This document shows positions 36,074-58,118 of a stretch of DNA of 64,000 nucleotides, piece after piece. Position numbers and translations under genes: made by a program. Position 1 is the stretch's first letter. Each line of letters starts with the position of its first letter. The notes beneath the pieces are model-generated. The model searched no databases, had not been told where the DNA came from, and saw only the letters and a list, made by a program, of their open reading frames with translations. Origin of the DNA: a bacterium (GTDB taxonomy: Bacteria > Fidelibacterota > Fidelibacteria > Fidelibacterales > Fidelibacteraceae); the NCBI GenBank assembly GCA_963676395.1, contig OY781066.1, positions 672,001 to 736,000 on the forward strand, given 5' to 3'.

Positions 36074-36094
36074 TTTTTTATTTCGAGGTAAATC

Positions 36095-37435: not shown

Positions 37436-37455
37436 GTAAATAGAAAACATCGATA

Positions 37456-37486: not shown

Positions 37487-37630
37487 TCCATAATTTTTTA
37501 TTCCCGATTAAAATCAATGACAAATTTTCAGCTCCACCTCACTATTCACATCAACCGCTTTTTCCTTTCCTCTCCATCTTTTTTATGTTAATTTTCTAAG
37601 CTGTTTACATAATATCAACACGGAAGCACT

Positions 37631-38197: not shown

Positions 38198-38198
38198 T

Positions 38199-39737: not shown

Positions 39738-39738
39738 T

Positions 39739-40803: not shown

Positions 40804-40954
40804 AATTCGATGAATCGATAGCTCACTCATTTAATTGTTCACTCATTCGACCATTATACTATTCAAAAAATATCCTTTGGAATTCTAAGCGGCTTATCCT
40901 AATTTTATTCAACTTAAATAAATATGACATGATAAATCTTTATGGGGCGACGAA

Positions 40955-41794
40955 ATGGATAAGATCATGGAAGCTTATAGCAATTTATTAACACAAAAAC
41001 GCTACAGTCCCAATACCCAAAAAACATATATGGGATATTTTTCCGATTTCCGAAGATATTTCCGATTTAAAGACATCTATCATATTGGCAAAGATGAAAT
41101 CAATCGATATATCCTAGATCTTATTCAGACAAATAATATTTCTCCGAGTCAGCAAAATCAACGCATTAATGCAATCAAATTCTACTATGAAAAGGTTTTA
41201 GGTCGAGAGAAAGAGTATTATAACATTCAGCGACCAAAAAAAGAATATCATTTACCCAAGGTTCTAAGCAAAAAAGAAATAAAATGCATGATTCAATCAT
41301 GTGAAAACCTTAAACATAAATGTATTTTAATGATACTTTATTCGGCCGGATTAAGGCGTAGTGAATTATTAGATCTACAAATTGACGATATTGATTCCAA
41401 AAGAATGTTAATCTTGATCAAAGGTGCCAAAGGTAACAAAGACAGAATAACACTTTTATCCGAAAGGCTACTTAGCATGCTTCGGGATTACTATAAAAAA
41501 TACAAACCCGAAAAATATTTATTCGAAGGTCAAAGAGGAAATAAGTATTCAGCTTCTAGTGTTGCCAATATTCTTAAACATGCAACCCTCAAGGCAGGGA
41601 TCAGAAAAAATGTTACACCTCATATGCTTAGACATAGTTTTGCCACACATTTACTTGAACAAGGAACTGATTTAAGATATATTCAAGAGTTATTGGGCCA
41701 TAATAGCAGCAAAACAACAGAAATTTACACTCATATATCAAAAAAAACGATTACAAACATACAAAACCCTATGGATGACATGTTTGAAACATAA
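40955..41794 (+). CDS. Integron-integrase-like tyrosine recombinase (SAM-like N-domain; no IntI-specific insertion)
   Basis: YSPNTQKTY, SQQNQRINAIKFYY, LPKVLS, YSAGLRRSE, KGNKDR, HMLRHSFATHLLEQGTDLRYIQELLGH and TTEIYTH; full R-K-H-R-H-Y set. Confidence 0.88.
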   Translation: MDKIMEAYSNLLTQKRYSPNTQKTYMGYFSDFRRYFRFKDIYHIGKDEINRYILDLIQTNNISPSQQNQRINAIKFYYEKVLGREKEYYNIQRPKKEYHLPKVLSKKEIKCMIQSCENLKHKCILMILYSAGLRRSELLDLQIDDIDSKRMLILIKGAKGNKDRITLLSERLLSMLRDYYKKYKPEKYLFEGQRGNKYSASSVANILKHATLKAGIRKNVTPHMLRHSFATHLLEQGTDLRYIQELLGHNSSKTTEIYTHISKKTITNIQNPMDDMFET

Positions 41795-41809
41795 ATGCAA
41801 AATAAACAC

Positions 41810-41876
41810 AATAAACAATACATGCCATATTGGAGATGTATACACAATAGGCATACACTAACGTTGTGCCCAATTA
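41810..41876 (+). other. Putative primary recombination (attI-equivalent) site
   Basis: Ends in CATACACTAAC-GTT like the attC-type sites; GTTGTGCCCAATTA (41863-41876) complements the end of cassette 1. Confidence 0.65.
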
Positions 41877-41896
41877 AATGAAAAGACTACATAGTT

Positions 41897-42766
41897 ATGG
41901 AAGAAGAACTTAATTCAGAGATTAAAAAGTTGATTCCAAAAGTGTATGATGATGCATTACAACCATCAGTCATTGAGATTGGCAAATCAATAAAGGAAAC
42001 TGTTAAACTCGCCTTGAAACCCTACAATGGAATAATTTGGTCAATTGATAAATCTTTCGACTGGTTAACAAACACAATATCTCAAAGAGTTGAAAACTAT
42101 AAAATCAAAAAGATAAAAGCTCCGAATATTGAGACCACAATTAAGGTTATTCAGGGAGTACAGACAACAGGAGCACTAAATGATTTTGTTCCAAGACATC
42201 TATTTGCCAATCTATTGTTTTCGGAAATAAATGCAGAATACGGACATGAAACCCATCCAGCTTATGCAGAACTTTTAAAACAATTTACTCAAGAAGAATG
42301 TAAAATTTTATGCGTCATTGCAAATAGACCTTTATCAATATATTCAACAAGTACATTAAGCGATAATTATTTTGACTATAACTACAAGGAGAAAGAAAAA
42401 ATAAGATATAGCAATGAAACTCATGATTTACAAATAAAATGTGGATTTACAGAAACTGCACCTTTAAGTCTTTACATTGACAACTTATTAAGACTAGGTA
42501 TTATAGAAAGACAATCTACCAAACATGATGAAATACCAAGCTCTACAAAAGAAGAAGCATCTGTTTATCATAGAGAACTTAAACTATTTGAGGAATATCA
42601 AAAACGATATAAAAATGATAGTCGTTGTCCAAAAAGTGTAAAAATCAGAATTGATATAATTAAACCAACATATTTTGGTCAAAACTTTTTAGGTGCAATT
42701 GGTGCCAGCCAGTTTTATGACCACTACAGTAATATTTTTATAAAGCCAGATTGGATAAAAGATTAA
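41897..42766 (+). CDS. Abi-alpha/DUF4393-like protein (cassette 1)
   Basis: KVYDDALQPS..EIGK, LFANLL, HPAYAELLKQ, IDNLLRLGII and T.FG..F motifs. Confidence 0.7.
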   Translation: MEEELNSEIKKLIPKVYDDALQPSVIEIGKSIKETVKLALKPYNGIIWSIDKSFDWLTNTISQRVENYKIKKIKAPNIETTIKVIQGVQTTGALNDFVPRHLFANLLFSEINAEYGHETHPAYAELLKQFTQEECKILCVIANRPLSIYSTSTLSDNYFDYNYKEKEKIRYSNETHDLQIKCGFTETAPLSLYIDNLLRLGIIERQSTKHDEIPSSTKEEASVYHRELKLFEEYQKRYKNDSRCPKSVKIRIDIIKPTYFGQNFLGAIGASQFYDHYSNIFIKPDWIKD

Positions 42767-42785
42767 ACCTTTAAAGAAGACTAAT

Positions 42786-43403
42786 ATGTTTTTTAAAACA
42801 CCAAACATCAAGATTGAAAAAATTGGGAATGTCGAAATCAATCCTCATTATCATCCGATTTTTGAAAAAATTGCTTACGATACGTTTCAAAAATTTATAG
42901 AAAAGGAAAACAAGTTACATCAGGTACAATCTTTATCTGACCAAAAGGTTAAAAAAACAAAGTTTTTAAAAACGATTGACCTACTTGGAAAAATCATATC
43001 AATTATTTCGGGTATTGCAATAGTTGTATTTGTGATTTTTTTACTTGCTGGTAAAACATCAATTGGTAGTGTGCAAGTATCAACTCTTTTAACAGTTATT
43101 AGTTTCACTTTGATTGGTGGAATTATTTCTATTGGCGGTGTGCAAATGTTTTCTTTTAATGCCTCGTTGAGAAAGAGTGAAAATAAAATAAGAGAACACC
43201 TAAATCGAAATTTGGAATGTCCCTTTGATAGAATACTAAAAACTGATAACCCAAATTGGCACAATAGACAGCCGGGAAATCCAGATTTTTGTATGCGCTG
43301 TCCATTAGGGATTGATATTTCAGGTAATGTAGAGGGTGGACTAATACATGTTTGTAAAGTATACATGAATTATCATAAAAGGTGGTTAGACAACAAACAA
43401 TAA
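42786..43403 (+). CDS. Two-TM membrane protein with Cys/His-rich C-terminus (cassette 1)
   Basis: Two hydrophobic helices; ECPF...FCMRCP...HVC. Confidence 0.65.
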   Translation: MFFKTPNIKIEKIGNVEINPHYHPIFEKIAYDTFQKFIEKENKLHQVQSLSDQKVKKTKFLKTIDLLGKIISIISGIAIVVFVIFLLAGKTSIGSVQVSTLLTVISFTLIGGIISIGGVQMFSFNASLRKSENKIREHLNRNLECPFDRILKTDNPNWHNRQPGNPDFCMRCPLGIDISGNVEGGLIHVCKVYMNYHKRWLDNKQ

Positions 43404-43407
43404 CTGG

Positions 43408-43539
43408 GCACAACATTTTGTATAAGTAATGGCAGGCGATGTAGTAAATATCAATGTTTGTAGCGCGCTCAAACTGCGTAGCGGTTTGACAGGAAACTAC
43501 CACGCAATCTGCCACTACTCATACAATTTACCGTTGTGT
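43408..43539 (+). repeat. attC-like site 1
   Basis: GCACAAC...ttgtataagtaatggcag / ctgccactactcatacaa...GTTGTGT; 132 bp; very similar to site 2. Confidence 0.85.
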
Positions 43540-43562
43540 GTAATGCAAAAAAAAGACAGTAC

Positions 43563-46328
43563 ATGAAATTTAAAACCCAACATTTAAGAAATATTATAGA
43601 TGCTAACAATGATAATCGATTAGCGATTTTTGTTGGAGCTGGAGTTTCAAAAAATTCTGAAACTAAAGGACTAAAACTTCCAATATGGCAGGATTTAATT
43701 GATGATTTGAAGAAAGATTTAGAATTAACAAGTGAGACAGACTTTTTAAAAATAGCACAACTTTATTATCTGGAATTTAAAGAGTATTCATATCTTAAAA
43801 AACTAAAAAAATATTTTCCTGATAACATAAGACCTTCTTCAATACACAAACAAATATTTGATTTAAATCCTCAAGTAATTATTACAACTAATTGGGATAC
43901 AATTCTTGAGAAAACGATAGAAGAAAATGCATATATCTATGATGTAATTCGTTGTGATGAAGATTTAGTTAAATCCACAATTCAAAAGAAAGTGATTAAA
44001 ATGCATGGAGATTTTAAAAATCACAATATAGTTTTCAAAGAAGATGATTACTTGAATTATCAATATAATTTTCCATTAATCGAAAATTACGTAAAAAGCA
44101 TTTTGTCTACTCACACTGTACTTTTTTTTGGTTATTCATATAATGATATCGATTTCAAACAAATAATGAAATGGTTGCAAAATTATTCAAAAGTACAACC
44201 GCCAAGATATTTAACTGTCTTTTATGAAAATTCAACACAAAATAAGTATTTAGAAAATCATGGAATAACCACATTTGTGCTTGATGAACCCAATAGTTCA
44301 ATGAATCTTCAAAGCGACTATACTGAGAATACAAAGTATTTCTTAGATTTAATAAAAGATGATGAAAGAATTAACTTCTTAAAAACTGAGAATGACATTA
44401 TCGATTTTGTTTTCAATAAATTAAAGGTGCTTTCTGAACTCAATGGTATTTTAATTGAGCAAATACAAACCTCATTGACTAATTGTGGTTTTCTGTATGA
44501 TGATAGCAATAAAACAATATTGGAATTTCGAGATAAAATACTCACATATGACTTAAATAAAGAAAAGAGAAATATATATAAGGAATTTGTAAAAATACTA
44601 AACGCGCAAGACGATAAAGGATTATCAAACAAAACTTTATATAGTATTTTTGAAATTTTAAGTAAAGCCAATATACAAGGAATTGTTATCACTGAAGACG
44701 ACTTATCAACTAGAGAAAAGAAATATATAGTTCTAGATGATTATTTAACAGATAAAGAATTCAATCTTGAATCAAAGTACCTTGATTTTGATTTTTCATT
44801 TGAGGACAAATCAACAAATGATATTTATGAATTGCTTCAAAAATCATTCATTTTATATCAGCTTGAAGATTACGAAAAAGCATATGAGATTGTTGAAAAA
44901 ACAATAATACAGTGTTTAAAGCAAAAAAATTATACTGTTTTATTTATTTCAATGTTTAATAAAAATGTTCTTCTCTGGAAATTGAAATATGGCTTTTTTC
45001 AAAATAGAAAAGTATATGAAGATATTGAAGAATATAATTTAGAAGAGAAGTTTAATCAGCTTCCAAAAGATTTACAAGGAGCACTTAAGCCAATTTACAA
45101 CTTCTTAAACTCTTGTTATTTATATATATTTGCATATAGAATATCAGAAGAATTAAATAAAAAAGAGGGATCTAAAAAAACTATAGAATCTGGTGGTTTT
45201 GTTTTAAATTCTAATATTACCGAATCTTCTTCAAAGCATAAAAATCTAATTTCATTTATACTCCGCAACGGAATAATTTTAGAAGGGAGAAGCGAATTTC
45301 AAAGTATCAATAAATATTTCCTGAAAATTTCTATTATAAGACAGGTTCAGAATAAAGCAACTACATTTAACGAAATAGAGTTTTTTTCAGCGATAAAGTA
45401 TCTTTCGAATAAAGAATTAAAACATTTACTATCTGAATTTTACAAATATGATTCTGACAAAAAGGGCAAATTTGAAATTTCAGAAGAAAATAAAAATTGG
45501 TTAATTAATAAGGTGTTGATAAATCTTGTAAAAAGATATATAAACTCCGACAATGCGTTTAATACATTTGAAAAATACTTAGAAAATACAATCTTCTTAC
45601 TTTCATTAACAAAACTATCAGATGATGAAATTTCAAAAATTTTAGAAAGCTTTAATAACATTATCGATAAAGCTAAAAACACAATTGGAATTTACGAATC
45701 AATAAATCTTTTCTTGGGAAACCAATATAATCTTCATAATACATCCATTAATGAAAGTTCATTACTTAATTTGATAAAATCTATCATTAATAAATTTGTA
45801 AGCAAGCAATATAATGGATACGATTTTCATGCAATTACACGCAATGAAATTTCGAATTTATATGGTTATGCAAGAGAACAAAAAGCAATATTTAAAGAAA
45901 AAGCATTGATTAATAAATTAATTGATGCATCAAAAGAACTACCAATAGAAGAACAATTAAATATTTCAGAATCTCTTCTTCTTAGTATTTATGATATTTC
46001 TACTGATGAAATTAAGACCAAAATTAAAGAATATATTTTGAGCATAAAATCAAGTGAAACAAAAGAAAAACATGATTATTTAATATTTGAGCTCATCTTA
46101 GTTATTCGTGATTTTAAAAATTTAGAAACAGATTTAATCAAAGAGCTTGAAGAATATTTTGAACCATATAAAGACTCAAAGTCATTTTCTTCAATTTGGT
46201 ATTCAATAGATAGTCAGATAGATTATTTAATAAAAGAAAAGCAACTAACTCAGCTCAAAGAAGTTTCTTCAACGATAAAAACGTTAATAGAAAACTTTAA
46301 GAAAAGTGAAAGATTTTCAATACTTTAA
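43563..46328 (+). CDS. SIR2-domain defence protein, DSR2-like (cassette 2)
   Basis: IFVGAGVS, IITTNWD, KMHGD and VFKEDDYLNY..NFPLI...STHTVLFFGYS; long helical C-terminus; ATG 43563 preferred over the GTG inside the att site. Confidence 0.8.
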   Translation: MKFKTQHLRNIIDANNDNRLAIFVGAGVSKNSETKGLKLPIWQDLIDDLKKDLELTSETDFLKIAQLYYLEFKEYSYLKKLKKYFPDNIRPSSIHKQIFDLNPQVIITTNWDTILEKTIEENAYIYDVIRCDEDLVKSTIQKKVIKMHGDFKNHNIVFKEDDYLNYQYNFPLIENYVKSILSTHTVLFFGYSYNDIDFKQIMKWLQNYSKVQPPRYLTVFYENSTQNKYLENHGITTFVLDEPNSSMNLQSDYTENTKYFLDLIKDDERINFLKTENDIIDFVFNKLKVLSELNGILIEQIQTSLTNCGFLYDDSNKTILEFRDKILTYDLNKEKRNIYKEFVKILNAQDDKGLSNKTLYSIFEILSKANIQGIVITEDDLSTREKKYIVLDDYLTDKEFNLESKYLDFDFSFEDKSTNDIYELLQKSFILYQLEDYEKAYEIVEKTIIQCLKQKNYTVLFISMFNKNVLLWKLKYGFFQNRKVYEDIEEYNLEEKFNQLPKDLQGALKPIYNFLNSCYLYIFAYRISEELNKKEGSKKTIESGGFVLNSNITESSSKHKNLISFILRNGIILEGRSEFQSINKYFLKISIIRQVQNKATTFNEIEFFSAIKYLSNKELKHLLSEFYKYDSDKKGKFEISEENKNWLINKVLINLVKRYINSDNAFNTFEKYLENTIFLLSLTKLSDDEISKILESFNNIIDKAKNTIGIYESINLFLGNQYNLHNTSINESSLLNLIKSIINKFVSKQYNGYDFHAITRNEISNLYGYAREQKAIFKEKALINKLIDASKELPIEEQLNISESLLLSIYDISTDEIKTKIKEYILSIKSSETKEKHDYLIFELILVIRDFKNLETDLIKELEEYFEPYKDSKSFSSIWYSIDSQIDYLIKEKQLTQLKEVSSTIKTLIENFKKSERFSIL

Positions 46329-46346
46329 TGTGAAAGAAAGCACTAC

Positions 46347-46478
46347 ACACAACATTTTGTATAAGTAATGGCAGACAATGTGGTAAATATCAAGGTTTGT
46401 AACCCGCTCCAACTGCGTAGCTGTTTGACAGGGAAGTGCTACGCAATCTGCCACTACTCATACAATTTACCGTTGGCT
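46347..46478 (+). repeat. attC-like site 2
   Basis: ACACAAC...ttgtataagtaatggcaga / tctgccactactcatacaa...GTTGGCT; 132 bp. Confidence 0.85.
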
Positions 46479-46504
46479 GCAATTGAAATGAAACTCATCA
46501 CAAC

Positions 46505-47671
46505 ATGAAAATAAATAAACTTAGACTTGAAGGTGTTGGAGGAATAGAATTTATTGAATTAATTTTCAATAGCCAGATGAATCTTTTCTGTGGCCCTAAT
46601 GGAATTGGCAAGACAACAATTCTCGAATCCATAGCACACATTTTTTCAAATGGTCGAACGAACATTTTAAAACGGAATGTAAATAGTGCAAACAGCAAGA
46701 TTTGGATTCAAATTGATGATAGTGGACAAACAAAAGAGAAAGAAATTCATTTTGATACATTTGTGCCTGAAGTTCCAACAGAAATTAGACAAGCACTAAA
46801 TCAATACTCAAATCAAATTCTATCTTTAAAAACTAGTAGGATTTTTCAATACCAGTCATTGCAAGCCGTTAATAAAGATTCTTTAAAGGAAACACATTTG
46901 ATTTGGAATGATGCTATCAATGGCATTCAATTAGCCGATGTGAAAAACTGGTTTGTAAATAGATATTTATACTCAGCACATCCAGGAGCTTTAACAGAAG
47001 AACAACTTGCGAATTATGAATTAGCAAAATCTTGTTTTTCATTTTTAAATGAAGAGTTTTCTTTTTCAAAGGTTGATGCCTCTTCAAATGAAATTATGGT
47101 CAGTACTCCAAGTGGTACAATTTATTATGAATATTTATCATCTGGTTTTAAATCAATAATCTCAATATTATTTGGAATAATAAAGGAAATTGAATTTAGA
47201 TTTACTAATCCAAGAATAAAAGCTGTTGATTTTGAGGGGATAATTCTAATTGATGAAATAGAACTTCACTTACATCCAGAGTGGCAAGAAAAGGTTGCAA
47301 GTGTACTCTTAAAGGCATTTCCAAAAGCCCAGTTTTTTGCAACAACTCATAGTCCACATATCATTCAGACAGCGTTACCAAATCAAATAATTGCCTTGGA
47401 GGCAAGTGATAAGAAAACAATCCAGAGAGAGCTTCCTGATACTGAATTTGGATTTCAAGGATGGACAATAGAAGAAGTATTAACTGATGTAATGGGAATG
47501 AAAGATACTAGGACCGAATTATTTAATCTGCTTATGTACGATTTTCAGATAAATATAGATAAAGAAAATTATGAAGGTGCATTAAAGATATTTGAAACTG
47601 TAGATTCTTTATTGCATCCTCACAACGAACTTAGAAAACTTTTAAAATTTCAACTCGCTGGAATTAAATAG
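46505..47671 (+). CDS. ptuA: ABC/AAA ATPase, Septu PtuA-like (cassette 3)
   Basis: GPNGIGKT, LSSG, ILIDEIELHLHPEWQ and TTHSP motifs; followed by an HNH gene. Confidence 0.75.
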   Translation: MKINKLRLEGVGGIEFIELIFNSQMNLFCGPNGIGKTTILESIAHIFSNGRTNILKRNVNSANSKIWIQIDDSGQTKEKEIHFDTFVPEVPTEIRQALNQYSNQILSLKTSRIFQYQSLQAVNKDSLKETHLIWNDAINGIQLADVKNWFVNRYLYSAHPGALTEEQLANYELAKSCFSFLNEEFSFSKVDASSNEIMVSTPSGTIYYEYLSSGFKSIISILFGIIKEIEFRFTNPRIKAVDFEGIILIDEIELHLHPEWQEKVASVLLKAFPKAQFFATTHSPHIIQTALPNQIIALEASDKKTIQRELPDTEFGFQGWTIEEVLTDVMGMKDTRTELFNLLMYDFQINIDKENYEGALKIFETVDSLLHPHNELRKLLKFQLAGIK

Positions 47672-47678
47672 AAATTAA

Positions 47679-48422
47679 ATGATTAAGCTTAATAGACTTT
47701 TTACACCTCTCGGATTATCTCCAGCTTTTATTAAAGCACAAACACTTGAATTTAAAACAAATGGAACAAATGTATGGAATGTTAACTGGTTAAAAGAATC
47801 GCTACTACAGTTAAGTTTTCAAAAATGTGCCTATTGTGAATGTTCTTTGAGCGTTGAAAGTAATTATATGGAAGTTGAGCATTTTGAAGACAAAAGTGAT
47901 TACCCAGATAAAGTTTTAATTTGGGAAAACCTTATTCCTTCTTGCAAGAAATGTAATGGTTCGAAAAGTACTCACGATGTAAATAAAGAACCAATTGTTA
48001 ATCCATTTATCGATAATCCCTCTGATGAATTTTATTTTAGATTATACAAGATAAAAGGAATTAAAGAAAAGGGTATTCGAACAGAATCCATATTAAATTT
48101 AAATCACCCTGAAAGAGCAATAAAAAAACGATTTGAAATTGGTGAAGCCTTAGAAAACTTAATTGAACAAGCATTTGAACGGTTGATTAATTTTGAGGAA
48201 AGTTCAACCGTACTTCGAAGAAACAAGCTAAATAATATTGTTGAAGAAATTCTACAAGAGAGTCAACCTGAATCTATATATTCTGCAACTTGTGCAACAA
48301 TTCTTCATTCATGTTTGAGATATAATGAAATCAAGATAAAAATGGAAAAATTAGGTTTATGGACTTCAGAATTTGATAATTTACATGAAAAATCGAAAGA
48401 AATTGTACTAGAAATGAAATAA
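47679..48422 (+). CDS. ptuB: HNH endonuclease, Septu PtuB-like (cassette 3)
   Basis: KCAYCE, EVEHF and WENLIPSCKKCN..K motifs. Confidence 0.75.
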   Translation: MIKLNRLFTPLGLSPAFIKAQTLEFKTNGTNVWNVNWLKESLLQLSFQKCAYCECSLSVESNYMEVEHFEDKSDYPDKVLIWENLIPSCKKCNGSKSTHDVNKEPIVNPFIDNPSDEFYFRLYKIKGIKEKGIRTESILNLNHPERAIKKRFEIGEALENLIEQAFERLINFEESSTVLRRNKLNNIVEEILQESQPESIYSATCATILHSCLRYNEIKIKMEKLGLWTSEFDNLHEKSKEIVLEMK

Positions 48423-48429
48423 CAACTGC

Positions 48430-48559
48430 TGCCAACAATGTATATACAAAATAGGCGAGATAGTAGTAAATTCAAGGGTTGTAGCCCGCTTCAAAATTGT
48501 GACGGTTTGACAAGTTTGAAGCCCGCAATCGCCTACTTTGCATATACTTACCGTTGGCA
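48430..48559 (+). repeat. attC-like site 3
   Basis: TGCCAAC...gtatatacaaaataggcga / tcgcctactttgcatatac...GTTGGCA; 130 bp. Confidence 0.85.
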
Positions 48560-48598
48560 ACAATACAGGACACACCTCAGTTGTAAAGATTATGAAAT

Positions 48599-51115
48599 AT
48601 GATTGAAAAGAAAATTGACAAATCTATTCTCCTTGATGATTTGGAGCTATTTAAATATTTAAAGGATAATGATAGTGAATTCGTATCGTTAATTGATGAT
48701 ATAAATGCCAAAGTTAAGAACCTGCTCAATAGTGGTATACCAAAAGTATTTTCATCATACACCTTACATGACATTGAACATTCATATCGGATAATAAAGT
48801 ATATGAGTGACATTATTCCTGATATTTCAAAATTAAATGAACTTGAAATTACTATTCTGATACTTGTTGGATTGTTGCATGATGTTGGAATGGCTGTGTC
48901 CACAGAGGATTTAGAGTTAATTAAAAATGATAATTACCCTCATTTTGATGTGAAGTTTTCTGCAACTAAAAAATATGTTGGAGGTGATGAAAACTTAGCA
49001 TTGCAGGAATATATAAGAATGTATCATGCTCAAATGTCGGGAATATACATTGAAGAAAAGTTAAAAGACAAGCTGAAAATTTCTGAAAACTCTACCTTAT
49101 CTTTCATGGATGATGTTATTAAAATCTGTAGAAGTCATACTGAGTCATATGAATGGATTAAGCAAAATTTGAATCCGTACACTGTATTAGGTGATTATGA
49201 ATACAATTCCTTATATATTTCTCACTTATTGAGACTTGGAGACATCCTAGATATTGATGAAAAAAGAACTCCTTTAAGCTTGTATAACTTGATAGCTCCT
49301 AAAGGTAAAAGTGAAGAGGAATGGGATAAGCATTTCATAATTCAAAATTATGAGAAAATTGAAATAAATCCGAAATCAAAATTAAAGCAGATTGCTTTTC
49401 ATGGTCATTGTTCTAACGCACATATACACCGTAAATTACTAGAATTTTTTGATTGGGTTAATGAGGAACTTTTGAATGCATTAGCATCAACGAATAATAT
49501 GCAAGAGCAGTATAGGCTAAATCTCGAAAATTCAATCCTTCAAAATATTGTAACCGAGGGCTACACATTTTCTGATTATAAAATGAAACTCGATTTTGAA
49601 GCAATTAGTTCTTTATTGATGGGGGAAAAAATATATGGAGGAAAAGAACTAGGATTAAGGGAGCTTATTCAAAATTCGATAGATGCATGCCGATATAGGA
49701 CAGAATTAGAAAACATAGGAAAAGAATTTGGCGAAATAGATTATGAGCCTAAAATAAAAGTTATTGTAGACAGTAAAAACCAGATTATTTCAATAAAGGA
49801 TAATGGGGTAGGTATGTCAATTGGTGTAATAAAGAATCACTTCTTGAATATTGGCAAATCTTATTATAATTCATCCGAATTCTTGTTGCAAGATGTCGAG
49901 TATAAACCAATAGGAAATTTTGGAATTGGGTTCCTTGCATGCTTTATGTTATCTAATAATATTAAAGTAGTGACTAGATATTATAATAGCCAAGACAAAT
50001 ATATTATTGAACTTGAAAAAGGAAACGAATTTACATCTATGTTGAAATCAAATGACGTAAGATTTGAAGGGACGGAAGTTGTTTTTAATCATGATGAATT
50101 TATGAGTGTTTTCAATGATAAAATTGAAGATATATCAAATTTTCTGAAAAAATATTTTATTACTGATGGCATTGAATTAGAACTTATAAATGTAGATAAG
50201 AAAGAACGGATTTCTATCGAAAATAAATTTGACAAAAACATAACACCAGATAAAGGATTTCTAATTGATTTAAGTTCTTATTTAAAGGAAATAGAAGGCT
50301 ATGCGATTGTTAAACACCGCAATAGCTTTATTCACACTTTAGATGATATTGGCTTTGAAGGTGAACTTTATTTTTATGATTATGAAAAGGGATTATATGA
50401 AGTAGAGGATTTATCGAAAGTTGATATTGATTTTTATATACTTAACAATAGAATTAGATATTTCAATATTCCATTAGTTGAAAATGAAAATGTATCTGAT
50501 TACCTCAATGGTTTAAGATATACTGATGATGATGTATCAGAAGTAATTGATAAAATGGTCAATGACTTAAGATGGATTTCTATACTCCCTCAAAGAGATA
50601 CTGATTCAATGATGTCTGACCAAATTATAGATAATGGAGATACTTTTTTTGACAATTTAGAGTTCAGCGACTTAGTAAAATTAGGTCACGATGACACATG
50701 TAAAACAAAGATGTTTGAGAAAGAGCAAAATATATTTGAAGGAGAAAAAAGTAACTTATATATGCCTTTTGAGCAAAAAGAAGACAATTACTGGAGATAC
50801 TATTATAGAAAAAAAGAAAAACAAAATTTGTATGTAAGAAATGTTTTAATCAAGGACTTTGATTTTTCTTTTAATACTAAAGCATCCATTTTTGACATAA
50901 ATGATGTAATAGTCAATGTACAATCAAAAAAAGTTGTTCCTGATATTTCTAGAAATAATTTGGATTCAGAAACAGAAAATAGACTTAACTATTCGATAAG
51001 CAGAGCAATTCATATTGGATTACTTAATAGTGAAAAATTGTTAGATAATGAAAGAGAAACTCTTAAGTTATTTATTGATGAGTTTTATACTGACAAAACT
51101 GAATTTGATAAATAA
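48599..51115 (+). CDS. HD-domain plus HSP90-like (GHKL) ATPase fusion (cassette 4)
   Basis: YTLHDIEHS, LLHDVGM and LRLGDILD; then RELIQNSIDA, DNGVGM and IGNFGIGFLACF. Confidence 0.85.
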   Translation: MIEKKIDKSILLDDLELFKYLKDNDSEFVSLIDDINAKVKNLLNSGIPKVFSSYTLHDIEHSYRIIKYMSDIIPDISKLNELEITILILVGLLHDVGMAVSTEDLELIKNDNYPHFDVKFSATKKYVGGDENLALQEYIRMYHAQMSGIYIEEKLKDKLKISENSTLSFMDDVIKICRSHTESYEWIKQNLNPYTVLGDYEYNSLYISHLLRLGDILDIDEKRTPLSLYNLIAPKGKSEEEWDKHFIIQNYEKIEINPKSKLKQIAFHGHCSNAHIHRKLLEFFDWVNEELLNALASTNNMQEQYRLNLENSILQNIVTEGYTFSDYKMKLDFEAISSLLMGEKIYGGKELGLRELIQNSIDACRYRTELENIGKEFGEIDYEPKIKVIVDSKNQIISIKDNGVGMSIGVIKNHFLNIGKSYYNSSEFLLQDVEYKPIGNFGIGFLACFMLSNNIKVVTRYYNSQDKYIIELEKGNEFTSMLKSNDVRFEGTEVVFNHDEFMSVFNDKIEDISNFLKKYFITDGIELELINVDKKERISIENKFDKNITPDKGFLIDLSSYLKEIEGYAIVKHRNSFIHTLDDIGFEGELYFYDYEKGLYEVEDLSKVDIDFYILNNRIRYFNIPLVENENVSDYLNGLRYTDDDVSEVIDKMVNDLRWISILPQRDTDSMMSDQIIDNGDTFFDNLEFSDLVKLGHDDTCKTKMFEKEQNIFEGEKSNLYMPFEQKEDNYWRYYYRKKEKQNLYVRNVLIKDFDFSFNTKASIFDINDVIVNVQSKKVVPDISRNNLDSETENRLNYSISRAIHIGLLNSEKLLDNERETLKLFIDEFYTDKTEFDK

Positions 51116-51122
51116 GTACTGT

Positions 51123-51253
51123 TGGCAACAATGTGTATAGTGCATAAGGGTTTCAGAGGTTTTCGAGCATTATCACCCACATCAATTTTGGGTGGTAACT
51201 TGACAGGTTTGAAGCCCGCAACCCCTTACGACACCATACACTCAACGTTAGCG
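51123..51253 (+). repeat. attC-like site 4
   Basis: TGGCAAC...gtgtatagtgcataaggg / cccttacgacaccatacac...GTTAGCG; 131 bp; very similar to site 5. Confidence 0.85.
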
Positions 51254-51295
51254 GTAATTTAAACTCCAGAAATTGGACCTAATAACATCAAAATT

Positions 51296-51985
51296 TTGAA
51301 AGAAAAAGACACATGCTGTTACTGTGGTAAGAACTCTGAGTCAAGAGACCATATCCCATCCAAAAATTTATTGGAAAAACCATTTCCAGATAATTTATTA
51401 ACAGTACCGTCTTGCATAAAGTGTAATCAATCATTTTCATTAGACGAAGAATATTTTCTAAATGTATTAGTTGAGATTTCAAACAATCCGACTTTAATCG
51501 CAAAAAAAGAGCCTAACGGTAATGTTTATAAAGCACGAAAGCGGTCAAAAAAATTAAATGATAGAATTGAAAATTCATTGATTCAGTTAGAAGATGGAAA
51601 AATCTATTTTAGAATGGAAGAAAACAGAATTAAAAAAGTTATAGAGAAAAATGCACTTGGACTCTACTTCCATAAATACCATAAACTTGCTAACCTGAAT
51701 AAATTTAATTGTACTGGATTCTATCCGTTTTCAGTTGAAGAAACAAGACCTGCAGAAATTTTCATGTTGACTTATTCTGAAAAATTTAGAGCCAAAAGAT
51801 GGACAACAATTCAAGAGAATGTTTTTTCATATATAGTTGTACGAGATTGGAGGAGAGGAAAAAAATTGACAATGATTTTTCATATTCATAACACAGTATG
51901 GTGTATTATTGAAATTCCATTTCCAACATCAACGAAAAGATTAAAAAGACAAAAGAATTCTCATACTGAAAAAATAAATTTATGA
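51296..51985 (+). CDS. HNH endonuclease-domain protein (cassette 5)
   Basis: CCYCG...SRDHIP...LTVPSCIKCN; TTG start. Confidence 0.75.
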   Translation: MKEKDTCCYCGKNSESRDHIPSKNLLEKPFPDNLLTVPSCIKCNQSFSLDEEYFLNVLVEISNNPTLIAKKEPNGNVYKARKRSKKLNDRIENSLIQLEDGKIYFRMEENRIKKVIEKNALGLYFHKYHKLANLNKFNCTGFYPFSVEETRPAEIFMLTYSEKFRAKRWTTIQENVFSYIVVRDWRRGKKLTMIFHIHNTVWCIIEIPFPTSTKRLKRQKNSHTEKINL

Positions 51986-52398
51986 ATAAACCACAAAAAT
52001 ACATTATTTCATTTCTACCTGCTGCAATATTTTTGTTCAACCAAATATTGATAATGTTTATTCGACCGATTATTCCTGCCAATAGATTTGAGTTACTATC
52101 AGAAATATTTGGTTGGTTACCCAACTATTTAGCTTCAGTCGGATTTGTTCTTATGAGTATGCTCCTATTAATAATTATAAAGGAATTAAAGCTGGATAAA
52201 AAGTACGCACGTTATTATAATATATATATGATTTTTATATCAGTGATTGCATTATTTGGTTTTATATGGTGGGAAAATCAACAGAAAAACAACTCGATGA
52301 TATATGATTTAAAAGATATTTATGCAACAGTTTGCGGCGTTATTACTGGATATTCAATATTTTTAATATTATACTTTAAACATAAATTCAACAACTAA
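51982..52398 (+). CDS. Small 4-TM membrane protein
   Basis: Hydrophobic helices; LPN and D..DI.A motifs. Confidence 0.6.
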   Translation: MNKPQKYIISFLPAAIFLFNQILIMFIRPIIPANRFELLSEIFGWLPNYLASVGFVLMSMLLLIIIKELKLDKKYARYYNIYMIFISVIALFGFIWWENQQKNNSMIYDLKDIYATVCGVITGYSIFLILYFKHKFNN

Positions 52399-52455
52399 AA
52401 GATATTAATTCTGATAAATTAACGAACAAGTTGACTTTAAATGACAAACACCAGC

Positions 52456-52586
52456 ATACAACAATGTGTATAATTCATAAGGGTTTCAGAGGTTTTCGAT
52501 CGGTTTCACCCGAATCAATTTTGGGTGGTAACTTGATAAGTTTGAAGCCCACAATCCCTTACGAAATCATACACTTAACGTTAGCG
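52456..52586 (+). repeat. attC-like site 5
   Basis: ATACAAC...gtgtataattcataaggg / cccttacgaaatcatacac...GTTAGCG; 131 bp. Confidence 0.85.
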
Positions 52587-52645
52587 TGTATTACCACAAC
52601 AGAGACATAGATCGCAAAGTTTCTTTATAGGAATATTTAGCTAAA

Positions 52646-53089
52646 ATGAGAATTGAGAAAATTATCAATAACAAAAAGAAATACCTTGATTTATTGCTGT
52701 TAGCGGATGAGTCAGAGGATATGATTGACAGATATTTGGAAAGTGGAGATATGTTTGCACTATTCGATGATGACGTTAAAACTGTTTGTGTTGTTGCTGC
52801 AATAGATAAAGAAACTTGCGAATTGAAAAACATAGCAACTTATGAGAAATATCAAGGTAGAGGATATGCTAAAGCATTAATAAATTATATTTCTAATTTT
52901 TACAAAAACGATTATAAAACAATGCAACTCGGAACAGGCGATATCCCAGCAATTTTGTCATTTTATGAAAATTGCGGATTCAAAATATCACATCGATTAA
53001 AGAATTTTTTTACTGACAATTATGACCATCCAATGTTTGAAGACGGAATACAGCTTATAGATATGGTTTATCTAAAGAAAAAATTATAA
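52646..53089 (+). CDS. GNAT N-acetyltransferase
   Basis: LLLLAD, ELKNIA...YQGRGYA and FYENCGF motifs. Confidence 0.9.
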
Positions 53090-53105
53090 TAGCTAAATTA
53101 TTAAG

Positions 53106-53285
53106 ATGAAATCCATTGATGTAAAACAAGCAATAGATAGTGATGTCGAAAGAACAACCCGGTTATTTTATGATACAATTCAGAATGTCAATATAAGGGA
53201 TTATTCCCAGGAAGAGGTTGACGATTGGTCATCATGGAAAACTGATACAAATAAGTGCTTGGATAAAATGAAATTGAGAAATTAA
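53106..53285 (+). pseudogene. Truncated YafP-like GNAT N-terminus
   Basis: My translation MKSIDVKQAIDSDVERTTRLFYDTIQNVNIRDYSQEEVDDWSSW..., stops after 59 aa. Confidence 0.6.
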
Positions 53286-53340
53286 TTAATGAATATTCAA
53301 AAAATTAAATTACCGGCATAACAGGTGAACTATATAAGAC

Positions 53341-54339
53341 ATGAGATTACAAATAAAACATAAAGAATTGAAGAGATTGAAAAAAAGAACAGGATTTACC
53401 ATTACTATTTTTGTTGCAATTATGAATGTTATTACAATACATGCGCAAACCAGGTCACTTAAAGAAACTGATTTAATTTGTTCAAATAATGAAAAACCTC
53501 ATGTCGCATTTTCTTTTGATGATGGTTCAACAAAAGACAAACTTACTTACAAAAATTCGGAATGGAATTCGATGATACGAAAACAACTGAAGGATAATCA
53601 TATTCAAGCAGTTTGGTTTGTTGCGGCAAAAGGAATGGATAACGACAAAGGTAAACAGTTGTTGGAAAAGTGGAACAAAGATGGCCATCTGATCGCAAAT
53701 CACACGTATAGCCATTTCAATTACAATGATTCTTTAATGACTTGTAAAGCATATACCAAAGATATACTGAAATGCGATTCATTGATAAGCAGTTATACAA
53801 ATTATAAAAAAATAGTTCGCTTTCCGTATTTAAACGGAGGTAACACTATCTCGAAACGAGACAGCTTGCTTGATTTTCTTCAACAAAATGATTATCGGCA
53901 AGGATGGGTAACTATTGATAATTGTGAATGGTATATAAATATGAGATTGATGAATCGTTTAAAAGAAAATCCTGATGCCGATTTTAGTGGATTTGGAGCG
54001 TATTACGTTAATCATATTTTCGAAATGGCACAACATTACAATAAGCTTTCAACTCAGATTAATCAACGGCAAATAACACACTCTCTCTTATTGCATTTCA
54101 ATCTGACTTCAGCACTGTTTTTAAATGATTTGATTGAAAAATTCAGAAAAGAAGGATGGATAATTGATAATTACAGCGAAGCAATGAATGACCCGGTTTA
54201 TTCAGGTCAACCTATTGCAATACCATCCGAACAAAGTATAATTTGGATGCAAGCAAAGCAAAAAGGTGGATTTGAATTAGATTACGATGAAGAAAACATC
54301 AAACATCAGGAAGACAAAATGGCTAAATTGGGATTATAA
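53341..54339 (+). CDS. Polysaccharide deacetylase (CE4/NodB) family protein
   Basis: FSFDDG, NHTYSH, RFPY and LLLH motifs. Confidence 0.85.
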   Translation: MRLQIKHKELKRLKKRTGFTITIFVAIMNVITIHAQTRSLKETDLICSNNEKPHVAFSFDDGSTKDKLTYKNSEWNSMIRKQLKDNHIQAVWFVAAKGMDNDKGKQLLEKWNKDGHLIANHTYSHFNYNDSLMTCKAYTKDILKCDSLISSYTNYKKIVRFPYLNGGNTISKRDSLLDFLQQNDYRQGWVTIDNCEWYINMRLMNRLKENPDADFSGFGAYYVNHIFEMAQHYNKLSTQINQRQITHSLLLHFNLTSALFLNDLIEKFRKEGWIIDNYSEAMNDPVYSGQPIAIPSEQSIIWMQAKQKGGFELDYDEENIKHQEDKMAKLGL

Positions 54340-54356
54340 AAATTACTCCCAATACT

Positions 54357-54656
54357 ATGCTTGATTTCGGATCATCACAAAATCCATTGGTAACAAGTGT
54401 ACATCATCAATCAGTAAAGAAAACAGGGGAAAATTTCCGGGTAATTGCAACGTCATTAGATAGAAAAGTCGTAGAAGCTATTGCCAATACAAAATTTAAG
54501 AATGTTTACGGCGTTCAGTTTCATCCGGAGTTTTCAACTTTATATAAACAGAAAGAGTTTAGAAATTCAAAAAACAATATTGTTTCATTTAACGATAATG
54601 ATAAACAATTTCTTAAACATTTTTGGAAAGATTTCAGTTTAAGATTATATGCTTAA
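54357..54656 (+). pseudogene. C-terminal fragment of a peptidase C26/glutamine amidotransferase
   Basis: SVHHQSV, VEAI and GVQFHPE present; catalytic Cys region absent. Confidence 0.7.
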
Positions 54657-54753
54657 AAAACAAAGAAAACGATGGGCATGTCCATCATGTGGTGGTGTCG
54701 TTTATTTTTATCATTACAGATGTAGTAAATGTGATAAAACTGTAGATGTGTGA
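54649..54753 (+). pseudogene. Zn-ribbon C-terminal gene fragment (DUF3795-like tail)
   Basis: My translation MLKKQRKRWACPSCGGVVYFYHYRCSKCDKTVDV*, ending just before an att site. Confidence 0.5.
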
Positions 54754-54764
54754 TTTTCCACATC

Positions 54765-54908
54765 GCCTAACAGCGAATATGCTCTACGGCTTCGCCTTGG
54801 CCTTCTTCAAATTAACCCTTTGAATATTTTCTAAAAAATTATGATATTACTCTATAGAATATATTCACACCCACAAAGGGCTGAGTTTACTTCATATTTT
54901 CGTTAACG
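54765..54908 (+). repeat. attC-like site of a different sequence family
   Basis: GCCTAAC...gaatatg / catattt...GTTAACG; 144 bp; downstream GTTAACGGCAAT matches the end of the pepE cassette. Confidence 0.7.
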
Positions 54909-54931
54909 GCAATTAAACAAGAGAGACAAAC

Positions 54932-56113
54932 ATGACACAGAGAACACTTACTTTACTCCTCATTTTACTCTTAAGCTTCATTGGAACTGAGAGTTTGAAA
55001 GCACAGCAAAACACAGTCAAGCAAGATGAAACTATTTTTGTTTGGGGCGGAGATATTAACACAAAGTTTGTCCAATATGTCGCTGATCTGACAAAAAAAG
55101 AACATCCCAAAATCTGTTACTTACCAACGGCAAGTGCAGACAACCCGGATAATATTAAATATTGGGAAAATATATGTAATAGGTTACAATTAGATACTCT
55201 AATTCTAAAAGTGTGGGTAAGTTCTTCAGATAAAAATCAATCATTTGAAGACATCCTTCTGAACTCTGATGCCATCGTGGTTGGCGGGGGTAATACCTTG
55301 AATATGCTGGGAATTTGGAAAGCGCAAGGCATAGATAATATTTTGAAAAAAGCATTAAAAAATGGAATAATTTTATCGGGAGGAAGTGCCGGTTCAATAT
55401 GTTGGTTTCAGAACGGTATCAGCGATTCACGCCCTGTCAACTTAAGTATTGTCAAAGGCTTGGGTTTTTTACCTTTTAGCAATTGCCCGCATTACTCACA
55501 AGAATCAAGGAAAGACTTATATCATCAAATGATAAAAAACAGGAAAATGAATCCGGGTTATGCAACTGATGAGCTATCCGGAATCCTTTTCAAAAATGGG
55601 AAAGCTGTAAAATCCATCAGCCAAAGCGACCTACACAAGGCTTATTTTGTAAATCGTAAAAAAGGAATAATTAAAGAGACTAAACTCAAATCAGACTTTT
55701 TACTTAAGAAAAATGCTCTTCCTGAAGGCTCTTATTCCTCCCAATCCATAAAAAAGAAAATTAATGATCTATTAGATTCCAATGACAGTTCCTCGCCAAT
55801 GAATGCGTGTATTTCTGACATAAAATCCATAAGATTAAACAAAGAGAACATGAGTGAATCGGCAAAGAAAAAAGTGTTGGATATGGGTATCGAAAAAATA
55901 TTCATTTACCAAAATAAAATAGCTGGAATTGTTAACAACGCCTACCTTGACTCTTTTGGATATGGCATGTGGTATTATTATAACTGCAACGGTATTTGGA
56001 AAAGTATGGGAGAAGACATAGGCGGAAAAACAATATTTGAAAGTGAAATTACATTTCGGGAAAAAGCAAAAACAATTATCAAAAAAGCTGAAAATAAATT
56101 AAACTGCCGCTAA
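54932..56113 (+). CDS. Secreted peptidase S51 (dipeptidase E-like) with C-terminal extension (cassette)
   Basis: LPTASAD, VGGGNT, GGSAG and CPHY motifs; signal peptide. Confidence 0.85.
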   Translation: MTQRTLTLLLILLLSFIGTESLKAQQNTVKQDETIFVWGGDINTKFVQYVADLTKKEHPKICYLPTASADNPDNIKYWENICNRLQLDTLILKVWVSSSDKNQSFEDILLNSDAIVVGGGNTLNMLGIWKAQGIDNILKKALKNGIILSGGSAGSICWFQNGISDSRPVNLSIVKGLGFLPFSNCPHYSQESRKDLYHQMIKNRKMNPGYATDELSGILFKNGKAVKSISQSDLHKAYFVNRKKGIIKETKLKSDFLLKKNALPEGSYSSQSIKKKINDLLDSNDSSSPMNACISDIKSIRLNKENMSESAKKKVLDMGIEKIFIYQNKIAGIVNNAYLDSFGYGMWYYYNCNGIWKSMGEDIGGKTIFESEITFREKAKTIIKKAENKLNCR

Positions 56114-56175
56114 CATTTTGTTTAAGCAAAAGCCGGGAAATACCGCACACTCCAACAATTTACTGTTGATAGCAA
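56103..56175 (+). repeat. Internally deleted attC-like site
   Basis: ACTGCCGCTAAC-attttgtttaag...caatttactGTTG resembles both ends of sites 1/2 without the middle. Confidence 0.55.
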
Positions 56176-56225
56176 GTGCAGCAGAGCCACAGAGTACTTA
56201 AACAACCACTAAAAAAGATTAAAAT

Positions 56226-56900
56226 ATGGGATACTATATTAACTTAGAAAAAATATCAATTGATGATTATCGGATAAAATTAGAATCAGCTTATCTGCCA
56301 CCGAGCAGACTGATCCTTAAGGACAAATTGGATGAACGATTTGGATATTTTAAGAGCATTGGAATTAAAAATGTTAAAGAATTGATACAGATACTCAAAA
56401 AAAAGGACAAAATAGCTGAACTATCAAAAGTTGATTGTTTATCGGGTGATTATTTGAAAATATTGCTTAGAGAATTAAACAGTACACTACCAAAACCTAA
56501 TAAGTTTGCCGATTTTACTGGAATTTCACAAGAAACAGTTGATAAACTAAAAAATATTGGCATAAAAAATACAGCGAAATTGTATGATAAAGTTTTAACA
56601 AAATCAGACCGGCAAAAGCTTACTGAGGCAACAGGCATAGCTGACAAAGAGATTTTAGAATTGACTAAATTGACAGATTTATCAAGAATTAAATGGGTTG
56701 GAGTGACGTTTGCCAGAATGCTTTACGATTTAAAAATAGATACAGTGGAAAAAGCATCAAAATCTGACCCGGTCAATTTACATTCAATGATAAACCAATT
56801 AAATAAGGAAAAAAGCATTTATAAAGGACAAATTGGATTGAACGACATTAAAATATTCGTGAATGCCGCAAAAGAAATACCTTTGGAGATAGAATATTAA
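56226..56900 (+). CDS. DUF4332-like helix-hairpin-helix protein (last cassette)
   Basis: DLSRIKWVGVTFARML and LKNIGIKNT motifs. Confidence 0.7.
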   Translation: MGYYINLEKISIDDYRIKLESAYLPPSRLILKDKLDERFGYFKSIGIKNVKELIQILKKKDKIAELSKVDCLSGDYLKILLRELNSTLPKPNKFADFTGISQETVDKLKNIGIKNTAKLYDKVLTKSDRQKLTEATGIADKEILELTKLTDLSRIKWVGVTFARMLYDLKIDTVEKASKSDPVNLHSMINQLNKEKSIYKGQIGLNDIKIFVNAAKEIPLEIEY

Positions 56901-57017
56901 TAAATAAACAAAAAATTATGCACACCCTCATACCTTACTTGCAATATACTCAACATTAAATAAGCAAATCTCTTTAAACTTCTGCCAACATTTTAACCGT
57001 TCAACTTTTCAACCCCA

Positions 57018-57045
57018 CAAAAAAAGGACCCGTTTCCGGATCCTC
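57018..57045 (-). terminator. Terminator of yitT, near the right boundary of the array
   Basis: A-run plus ggacccgtttccggatcc; near-identical in reverse complement to the hairpin at 61651. Confidence 0.65.
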
Positions 57046-57076
57046 ATATTTCTTCGTTATCCGTTGTTAACGGATC

Positions 57077-57958: not shown

Positions 57959-58118
57959 AAACGCCTCCACCAAAAATTGAGAGAATATAATCCTTTGAGA
58001 ATCAAGAGACAAGTGACAAATATAAAGAAATATGAGGGGGCTCAACATGTCGAGTCCCGGTATTATTCGGTCTGGATATATTCATATTCAATATCAATTT
58101 TCATATTCAATTAAAACT

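Follow-up and report, generated by a model that had tools for sequence, protein, structure and literature searches.

The 64,000-nt stretch of bacterial DNA analysed here (the window; assembly GCA_963676395.1, contig OY781066.1, positions 672,001 to 736,000 of the forward strand) carries, between rsgA and a YitT-family gene, a 16-kb platform of gene cassettes headed by a tyrosine recombinase gene. In function and layout we read this platform as a chromosomal integron, whose recombinase is a close relative of the integron integrase IntI and has no IntI-specific insertion; we give this reading a probability of roughly 0.8. The array consists of eight cassettes, whose ends are five related hairpin sites of about 131 nt, followed by three others, of which one is unrelated, one shortened and one collapsed. 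A first-pass annotation, made from the letters and their open reading frames (ORFs), had proposed a distinct integron-like capture platform, and this proposal is supported by the linkage of the sites to the recombinase family, by boundaries at a conserved GTT, by cassette turnover and by the missing insertion.

The recombinase gene (40955..41794, plus strand) encodes a protein of 279 residues that Pfam, NCBIfam and structure alignment place in the IntI/Xer group of tyrosine recombinases. It contains the Pfam domains Phage_integrase (1.9e-44) and SAM_4 (3.5e-17) and scores above the cut-off of NF040815, ‘site-specific tyrosine recombinase/integron integrase’ (237.9 bits vs 220). It stays below the cut-off of the IntI profile TIGR02249 (209.8 bits vs 265), which it matches in two stretches with the middle of the profile skipped, and its NF011946 score is 137 against a cut-off of 435. 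In an alignment to VchIntIA (2a3v), query residues 15-179 correspond to chain residues 16-180 and query residues 204-274 to chain residues 248-318, with approximately 43 residues of the IntI-specific region missing. This alignment and the sub-threshold TIGR02249 score bear out the earlier observation that the insertion is absent. The closest solved structures are those of archaeal XerA, 4a8e (1.6e-44) and 5hxy (8e-39), and the motifs GLR..EL, GKG.KDR, H.LRH and LGH...Y are kept in the alignment with XerA.

The protein belongs to a large family. At E<=1e-30 its relatives comprise at least 7977 protein clusters (90% identity), and the best 120 of these, besides the window's own protein (100%), are 269-293 residues long and 67-86% identical to it. 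They include records named Desulfuromonas sp. SDB, Candidatus (Ca.) Sabulitectum, Deferribacteraceae, Ca. Cloacimonetes and Desulfothermus. Among the matches listed, relatives from Bacteroidales are mostly 470-495 residues long (a minority has 254-371), and this length suggests additional sequence at the N terminus, which the window enzyme does not have. Canonical IntI proteins above the TIGR02249 cut-off are found in 53 of 151 sampled genomes of the phylum and in 0 of 32 in the window's family, and they match the profile over all of its 315 positions. A quick LG+G4 tree with 102 rows (20 of them canonical), built without XerA and without IntI of other phyla, splits the short family plus canonical IntI from housekeeping Xer at a Shimodaira–Hasegawa-like approximate likelihood ratio test (SH-aLRT) value of 100. 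Within it the canonical IntI of the phylum form one clade (SH-aLRT 100), and a group of 64 short-family rows has a value of 90; the fill filter probably removed the insertion columns, as canonical proteins make up 20 of 102 rows, under its 30% threshold.

One way to account for such a protein would be an ordinary integron whose integrase merely looks short, through degradation of intI or an annotation artefact. The TIGR02249 score of 209.8 bits, the words ‘integron integrase’ in the NF040815 name and a site architecture that parallels the canonical attC sites of the phylum all agree with this idea, which we nonetheless find hardly credible: the reading frame is unbroken, its product aligns with the XerA structures over its whole length, no frameshift or alternative reading that would restore an intI_Cterm match is visible, and against it stand also the many short relatives and the separate clade of full-length canonical IntI described above. 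A housekeeping role can be set aside as well, because two more genes of Xer type are present in the genome, one at 38199-39095 of the window, and the array recombinase is therefore not the housekeeping dimer resolvase. Its closest structural relatives by sequence are XerA and it passes NF040815; unlike the enzymes of Xer/dif systems, it is always found at the head of a cassette array and is patchy among relatives, with a homologue of 63-82% identity in only 4 of 21 other genomes of the same genus.

Directly behind the recombinase gene lies an attI-like primary site (41795..41869, plus strand), recognized by an L'-like box before the GTT and by an offset match; its crossover GTT, at 41863-41865, is approximately 70 nt past the recombinase stop codon. 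The 6 nt that follow this GTT, read as their reverse complement, are identical to the 6 nt preceding the AAC of site 1 (6/6), and complementarity between attI and the first site is likewise present at four other loci (L012, L024, L029 and L028), five with the window. Close relatives keep a ...ACAC(A/T)AACGTT motif at attI. These observations point to the attI-like site adjoining the recombinase gene as the insertion point. Two direct 12-nt repeats, ATAAACACAATA and GTATACACAATA, lie within 41795-41862 before the attI core and are kept in the closest relative; they may be accessory recombinase-binding sites.

The same offset relation extends along the arrays. For each site we took the 6 nt in front of the AAC and compared them with the reverse complement of the 6 nt that follow the preceding site's GTT, counting 5/6 or better as a match. 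Adjacent sites match in 45 of 53 pairs from 14 arrays, and in 26 of 32 pairs from loci outside the training set of the covariance model described below, against 7/67 for comparisons within the same site and 23/271 for non-adjacent sites. In the window the scores from attI to site 4 are 6, 6, 5 and 5 of 6. Such a pattern is expected if each cassette had once been a circle with a fully paired R box that was opened at G|TT on insertion, and it shows that cassette boundaries fall at the GTT, as those of integron cassettes do. A canonical integron array of the same phylum (L137) shows the same offset where examined.

The sites themselves form a structured family. We built a covariance model (R1) from 24 sites, 5 from the window and 19 from Psychroserpens, Algibacter and Polaribacter loci. 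Two hairpin scanners were dropped in its favour, the first of which found nothing while the second returned the five sites plus three or four false positives in the coding flanks. On the 64-kb window R1 finds only sites 1-5, all on the plus strand (E 6.5e-18 to 3.3e-17), and nothing else at E<=1; the five related palindromes of the first-pass annotation start exactly where it had placed them, at 43408, 46347, 48430, 51123 and 52456. Because these five were in the training set, independent support for the site family comes from the other loci. The consensus has an R box and an L-box stem with two 1x1 positions; the spacer between them is unpaired and measures 3 nt at the 5' and 6 nt at the 3' side. 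AAC and GTT are invariant in the 24-site alignment, and the earlier remark that the boxes depart from RYYYAAC/GTTRRRY is thus correct as a description and weak as evidence, since only AAC/GTT is invariant here.

RNAalifold predicts 18 pairs from the 24 sites, with compensatory changes in 11. In 55 non-training sites from 23 other loci, 92.4% of the cells pair, against 63.5% in shuffled and at most 38.5% in slid alignments; two-sided changes occur at 16 of the 18 stem pairs, and the covariation score was reached by 0 of 500 shuffles. This alignment was fitted to the R1 model, which favours the structure, and the slide control argues that the effect is real. Folded as bottom-strand DNA, window sites 1-5 have z-scores of -3.6, -2.8, -5.5, -2.0 and -2.7. 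Across 64 sites the bottom strand is the more stable in 54, equally stable in 2 and less stable in 8 (mean difference 2.06 kcal/mol), a bias that fits a single-strand substrate with strand choice but, the sites being kin to each other, is no proof of it.

The pairing bears on a different chemistry for the same platform, in which the sites would be double-stranded Xer/dif-like cores (L' box, spacer, R' box) recombined by two strand exchanges, with the palindromes serving some other end, such as transcription termination or the presentation of the site by cruciform extrusion. The enzyme is indeed Xer-like where IntI has the I2 helix, the attI-like site mimics an L'-spacer-R' half-site in duplex form, the offset signature puts the crossover at the GTT or to its left and is silent on the number of strands, and IntI is reported to retain an ancestral activity (PMC4792948). 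We nevertheless consider a duplex reaction unlikely. The R'' box and the R' extension are complementary only in the excised circle, so selection would act on the folded or cruciform full site; the stem covaries across 18 pairs; and a pure duplex substrate would hardly account for the bottom-strand bias in 54/64 sites.

Outside the window the sites follow the recombinase family. One genome per species was scanned for recombinase relatives, which gave 68 loci, mostly from Bacteroidota, and R1 made 72 matches at E<=0.01 on 79 loci. Of the 51 matches to non-training sites, in 22 loci, 41 lie downstream of the recombinase in the same orientation and 0 upstream on the same strand; homologous insertion-less recombinases of other genomes thus have sites of this kind, the linkage whose lack the first-pass annotation had named as a refutation. 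Nine others lie upstream on the opposite strand, in the classical divergent layout (six of them in L059), and one downstream on the opposite strand. At L059, from Bacteroidales, the recombinase gene (9989-10789) is divergent from a six-site array on the minus strand (2882-8593), and both layouts therefore occur in the short-recombinase family. A very strong R1 match (121.5 bits; L066:4086-4216, minus strand) was also seen downstream of a distant recombinase homologue (34% identity), on the opposite strand.

Canonical-IntI loci of the same phylum carry classical sites with ..CTAAC and GTTAGG.. ends, co-oriented with intI where examined. R1 has no match at E<=1 on 12 such loci (143.6 kb) and a single one, at E 0.88, on the short flanks of canonical-IntI loci. 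R1 is sequence-biased, so this null result speaks for different site families and not for different chemistry. The two families also differ in detail: the spacers of the window type are 3 vs 6 nt long and those of the canonical sites 5 and 6 nt (read by eye), and the window type has 1x1 mismatches where canonical sites have two one-sided bulges.

Turnover of cassettes is visible between related species. In three Algibacter species (L028, L029 and L022) the DNA is 74-92% identical upstream and through the recombinase gene; this homology ends at 10870/10871 and 10889, where the attI GTT is at 10867-10870, that is, 1-20 nt past the GTT, and beyond attI only the sites cross-match. Related species thus vary in content at a conserved locus, which shows that cassettes turn over at attI. 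In one Bacteroidales genome, two arrays share a cassette of about 414 bp (94-95% identity), which has a different rank in each and is tandemly duplicated in one. A single Bacteroidales chromosome also bears two platform copies (L027 and L033) with recombinase regions about 98% identical and arrays otherwise different. Assembly breaks are common on this side too: in 18 of 58 loci the contig stops within 350 bp downstream of the recombinase, compared with 2 of 58 upstream, and six contigs of close relatives end 0-3 nt after the attI GTT. Such breaks look like the behaviour of an assembly graph when different cassettes follow attI within a population.

The platform as a whole was also acquired between rsgA and the YitT-family gene. 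It is absent from this position in 12 of the 15 same-genus genomes in which rsgA was found, and at these empty loci the two genes are 22-386 bp apart; G019, G002 and G001 have an empty locus, yet carry a homologue of the recombinase (63-82% identity) on another contig. This absence, and the decay of the distal sites, would also be expected of a static defence island, which the recombinase integrated as a single 16-kb unit and in which the palindromes are repetitive extragenic palindromic (REP)-like elements or terminators. We judge such an island very improbable: terminators or REP elements do not predict the offset complementarity, nor would they lead one to expect that in other phyla the sites are strictly downstream of a recombinase of this family and co-oriented with it, that Algibacter homology ends at the attI GTT, or that contigs end 0-3 nt past it.

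From these sequences we infer a single-strand mechanism for an integron run by the short recombinase, which may be active in this genome. The enzyme would bind the attI-like site and the roughly 130-nt sites at the cassette ends, each of which would fold into a hairpin with a variable loop, whose R box (AAC/GTT) and L-box stem are set apart by an asymmetric unpaired spacer (3 vs 6 nt). By exchanging strands at the GTT of the 3' R box, the enzyme would insert circular cassettes at attI and excise them between two sites, and an integrated cassette would consequently begin with the last bases of its own former site. The folded bottom strand would be the substrate, as in integrons, the reaction would proceed without need for the I2 helix, and cassettes would be transcribed by read-through from the recombinase side.

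Several observations weigh against this integron reading. The offset signature of the window decays distally: site 5 matches site 4 at just 1/6, and by-eye comparison puts sites 6 and 8 at only about 3/6 against their predecessors and site 7 at 5/6 against site 6. The weak distal signature implies that this part of the array decayed or was rearranged by other means, and with sites 7 and 8 truncated, part of the array may be frozen. R1 matches occur in only 18 of 40 related loci with more than 350 bp downstream; the model is narrow, and other site families occur, for example at L052. Co-occurrence at the genome level is moderate, with R1 sites in 6/10 genomes with the recombinase and 6/30 without it, a count over 40 relatives under stricter filters that missed a site in G001 found by the locus scan. 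Minimum free energy (MFE) folds show some bulge in 37 of 58 short-type sites, with no common pattern, and the canonical sites folded from the phylum have bulges in 9 of 9. The tested sites are kin to one another, and the counts therefore do not stand for independent events. The I2 helix has been described as the innovation that allowed single-strand recombination (PMC7790495), so an enzyme that acts on hairpins without I2 would be hypothetical. Finally, the branching order within the short family plus canonical IntI is unsettled, and the tree does not decide between loss of the insertion and its never having been gained.

A broader proposition is that insertion-less short integrases head a second, ancient, multi-phylum integron lineage that captures cassettes by way of folded hairpin sites, without an I2 helix or extrahelical bases. 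The proposed lineage is seen in Marinimicrobia, in Bacteroidota, in records named Desulfobacterota, Deferribacteres and Cloacimonetes, and in others, and we hold the case for and against it to be evenly balanced.

The cassettes of the window are large (0.8-2.9 kb), and all of them, like their sites, are on the plus strand. Cassette 1 (41864..43533) encodes an Abi_alpha protein (41897-42766; Pfam Abi_alpha 6.9e-23, PADLOC candidate PDC-S47 2.4e-27) and a 205-residue protein of no known family (42786-43403), and it ends in site 1 (43408..43539; R1 86.9 bits, E 2.2e-17; bottom-strand fold -24.1 kcal/mol, z -3.6). Cassette 2 (43534..46472) holds a 930-residue SIR2-domain protein (43536-46328; Pfam SIR2_2 8.7e-24), which the PADLOC ThsA model matches over residues 13-230 only (3.7e-30); no TIR partner of it is present in the cassette. 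Site 2 (46347..46478; R1 89.3 bits, z -2.8) has a 6/6 offset match to site 1. The Septu pair PtuA (46505-47671) and PtuB (47679-48422) makes up cassette 3 (46473..48553), with full-length PADLOC matches of 7.1e-156 and 9.1e-88, and is followed by site 3 (48430..48559; R1 88.6 bits, offset match 5/6, z -5.5). Cassette 4 (48554..51247) encodes an 838-residue protein with HD-CE and GHKL-ATPase domains (48599-51115; Pfam HD-CE 4.3e-50, HATPase_c_3 1.8e-10) that has no PADLOC match, and it ends in site 4 (51123..51253; R1 86.1 bits, z -2.0, offset match 5/6). The two overlapping ORFs of cassette 5 (51248..52580), at 51296-51985 and 51982-52398, match nothing in Pfam, NCBIfam or PADLOC; they are followed by site 5 (52456..52586; R1 88.1 bits, z -2.7), the site whose offset match to site 4 is just 1/6. 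Sites 1 and 2 are 85% identical and sites 4 and 5 84%.

Beyond site 5 the array becomes less regular. Cassette 6 (52581..54902) carries, by Pfam, a GNAT acetyltransferase, a 59-residue ORF, a polysaccharide deacetylase and, at its end, a 99-residue ORF (54357-54656) that matches only positions 168-219 of the 219-position glutamine-amidotransferase (GATase) profile and is thus a gene fragment. Site 6 (54765..54908) has AAC...GTT ends, belongs to another sequence family and is not matched by R1, in line with the first-pass annotation, which had called it unrelated; its fold is weak (z -1.5), its L-box pairing is short and its 5' end resembles sites of the Flavobacterium soli array L052. Cassette 7 (54903..56165) encodes a peptidase S51 family protein (54932-56113; Pfam Peptidase_S51 2.1e-38) and cassette 8 (56166..56999) a DUF4332 protein (56226-56900; Pfam DUF4332 5.1e-20). 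The remnants that had been reported are real. Site 7 (56108..56171) is a shortened relative of sites 1 and 2 with its central part lost (repeat families D4 and D5), 77-80% identical to the ends of these two, and site 8 (56983..57005) is, by sequence comparison, a collapsed terminal site that retains the AAC, the spacers and the GTT without the stem-loop. A scan of 40000-58000 with Rfam gave no match at E<=1, and whether Rfam includes an attC family was not established.

Part of the cargo is anti-phage defence. The array had been described as loaded with defence genes, and this stands for the three of eight cassettes with genes that PADLOC recognizes (the Septu pair, the SIR2 protein and the Abi_alpha protein) and, by inference, for one more. 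The cassette 4 protein and the ORFs of cassette 5 are candidate defence genes from their position between known systems. Searches with the 14 cassette proteins against the other recombinase loci (tblastn, E<=1e-5) gave no match, so no window cassette is shown to be shared with another array.

The genome contains further sites of this type. A cluster of five R1-type sites without an integrase lies on the minus strand at C1:1832347-1839643 (L083:3347-10643), with offset matches of 3, 6, 5 and 4 of 6; its cassettes encode two S41 peptidases, a thioredoxin-domain protein and two proteins with no assigned family, with a TIR-domain gene upstream and a GNAT gene after the last site. R1 also finds a two-site cluster around one cassette with ORFs of 674 and 111 residues (C1:1104791-1107420, L084) and a lone site (C1:1135640-1135751, L085). 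All of these are far from such a recombinase, and in this respect they resemble clusters of attC sites lacking integron integrases (CALINs), from which they differ in having R1-type sites, a type that the standard attC model is not known to call.

The surroundings of the platform are as first described. Pfam confirms the recombinase, its orientation and the flanking genes, rsgA (39700-40803) on the 5' side and the YitT-family gene (57077-58048, minus strand) on the 3' side, and no transposase family is matched among the 18 ORFs scanned with Pfam, in agreement with the reported lack of one. The array is AT-rich, as had been noted: its GC content is 0.23-0.37 (500-nt steps, 41000-56999), compared with 0.36-0.46 for 36000-40999. 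In the ORF listing of the window, 14 ORFs lie 3' of the recombinase gene, all on its strand. LptG homologues with 69-80% identity are named Candidatus Marinimicrobia, which places the host in the FCB group and not in Bacteroidota. The collapsed site 8 abuts a terminator-like hairpin, and relatives have this hairpin too at the empty locus, beside the YitT-family gene. Comparison by eye for direct repeats flanking the 16-kb platform gave just an 8-nt match, within chance, and the rsgA-yitT intergenic DNA of relatives gave no alignment. The housekeeping Xer-type gene at 38199-39095, about 1.9 kb upstream of the array recombinase gene, encodes a protein 33% identical to the array recombinase. The same Xer-rsgA-yitT neighbourhood is present in relatives, among them G019, G004, G015 and G011, and the platform therefore landed beside the xer gene, a location that may be coincidence.

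The platform shares much with known chromosomal integrons: an IntI/Xer-group recombinase beside a primary site; co-oriented, promoter-poor cassettes; palindromes that begin with AAC and end with GTT, with a variable loop and a spacer left unpaired at the centre; a boundary at G|TT; integrase-less clusters elsewhere in the genome; and defence cargo, which Vibrio chromosomal integrons also carry (10.1101/2024.07.02.601686). It differs from them in a recombinase without the IntI-specific insertion, a feature that Smyshlyaev et al. describe as ‘not fully conserved’ in an integron-like subgroup (PMC8138268). The attI 3' of the integrase and the co-oriented array, which had been put forward as departures from canonical integrons, are present but do not distinguish the platform: they are on record for some true integrons, the co-oriented inverted-integrase group (PMC4889954) and the archaeal integrons, which have the additional domain and an attI just downstream of intI (10.1101/2022.02.06.479319), and the canonical IntI loci of the phylum look co-oriented. 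IntegronFinder requires the intI_Cterm profile, and its authors judged recombinases without intI_Cterm near attC not to be IntI (PMC4889954); IntegronFinder 2.0 reported almost no complete integrons in Bacteroidetes (PMC9024848). Standard integron searches probably miss this platform, the sole basis for this being the missing intI_Cterm region.

Of the systems in print, rAID-1 (Ross et al. 2019) comes closest, with an XerD-like recombinase, co-directional low-GC genes and integron-like intergenic repeats in 226/423 Bacteroidales genomes (10.1101/471110). It is a partial precedent for the architecture. rAID-1 is defined by at least 44% recombinase identity to BF9343_RS08045 and at least two co-directional downstream genes with GC of at most 41%, and its cargo is orphan immunity genes of type VI secretion system (T6SS)/interbacterial type (10.1101/471110). 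The window has a similarly defence-related array, and its co-directional low-GC genes (14 ORFs, GC 0.23-0.37) are within the gene and GC limits of that definition. By contrast, its host is from Marinimicrobia and not Bacteroidales, its recombinase is short (279 residues, against mostly 470-495 for the Bacteroidales relatives listed), and its cargo is anti-phage and miscellaneous without matched immunity families: none of the 14 cassette ORFs matches an immunity family in Pfam, NCBIfam or PADLOC, a search that did not include the immunity profiles of the rAID-1 authors. No proteins named B. fragilis are among the best 120 relatives listed in either the recombinase search or the Bacteroidales search. 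In its text, apart from figures and supplements, the rAID-1 paper notes integron hallmarks and gives no recombination mechanism, hairpin structure, crossover point or attI (10.1101/471110), and according to a 2025 preprint, how rAID clusters arise is ‘an area of active research’ (PMC12247911). Our literature search for insertion-less integron integrases with arrays, which did not cover figures and supplements, found rAID-1 only, and no description of the hairpin structure, the crossover point or the multi-phylum spread.

A large insertion-less family with the integron crossover signature challenges both the definition of the integron, which like the searches for it relies on the IntI-specific insertion, and the account of integron evolution that is based on the I2 helix. 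Culturable carriers were found, namely Algibacter sp. R77976, Polaribacter ponticola MSW5, Psychroserpens jangbogonensis PAMC 27130 and Flavobacterium soli DSM 19725, and the question is thus directly testable. The finding would allow the mining of unexplored cassette reservoirs for new defence genes, such as those of cassettes 4 and 5, and would offer a concrete mechanism for the rAID clusters of gut Bacteroidales. If the second lineage is real, single-strand cassette recombination would be independent of the IntI insertion, and censuses based on intI_Cterm would miss a large share of integron diversity, including reservoirs of defence genes.

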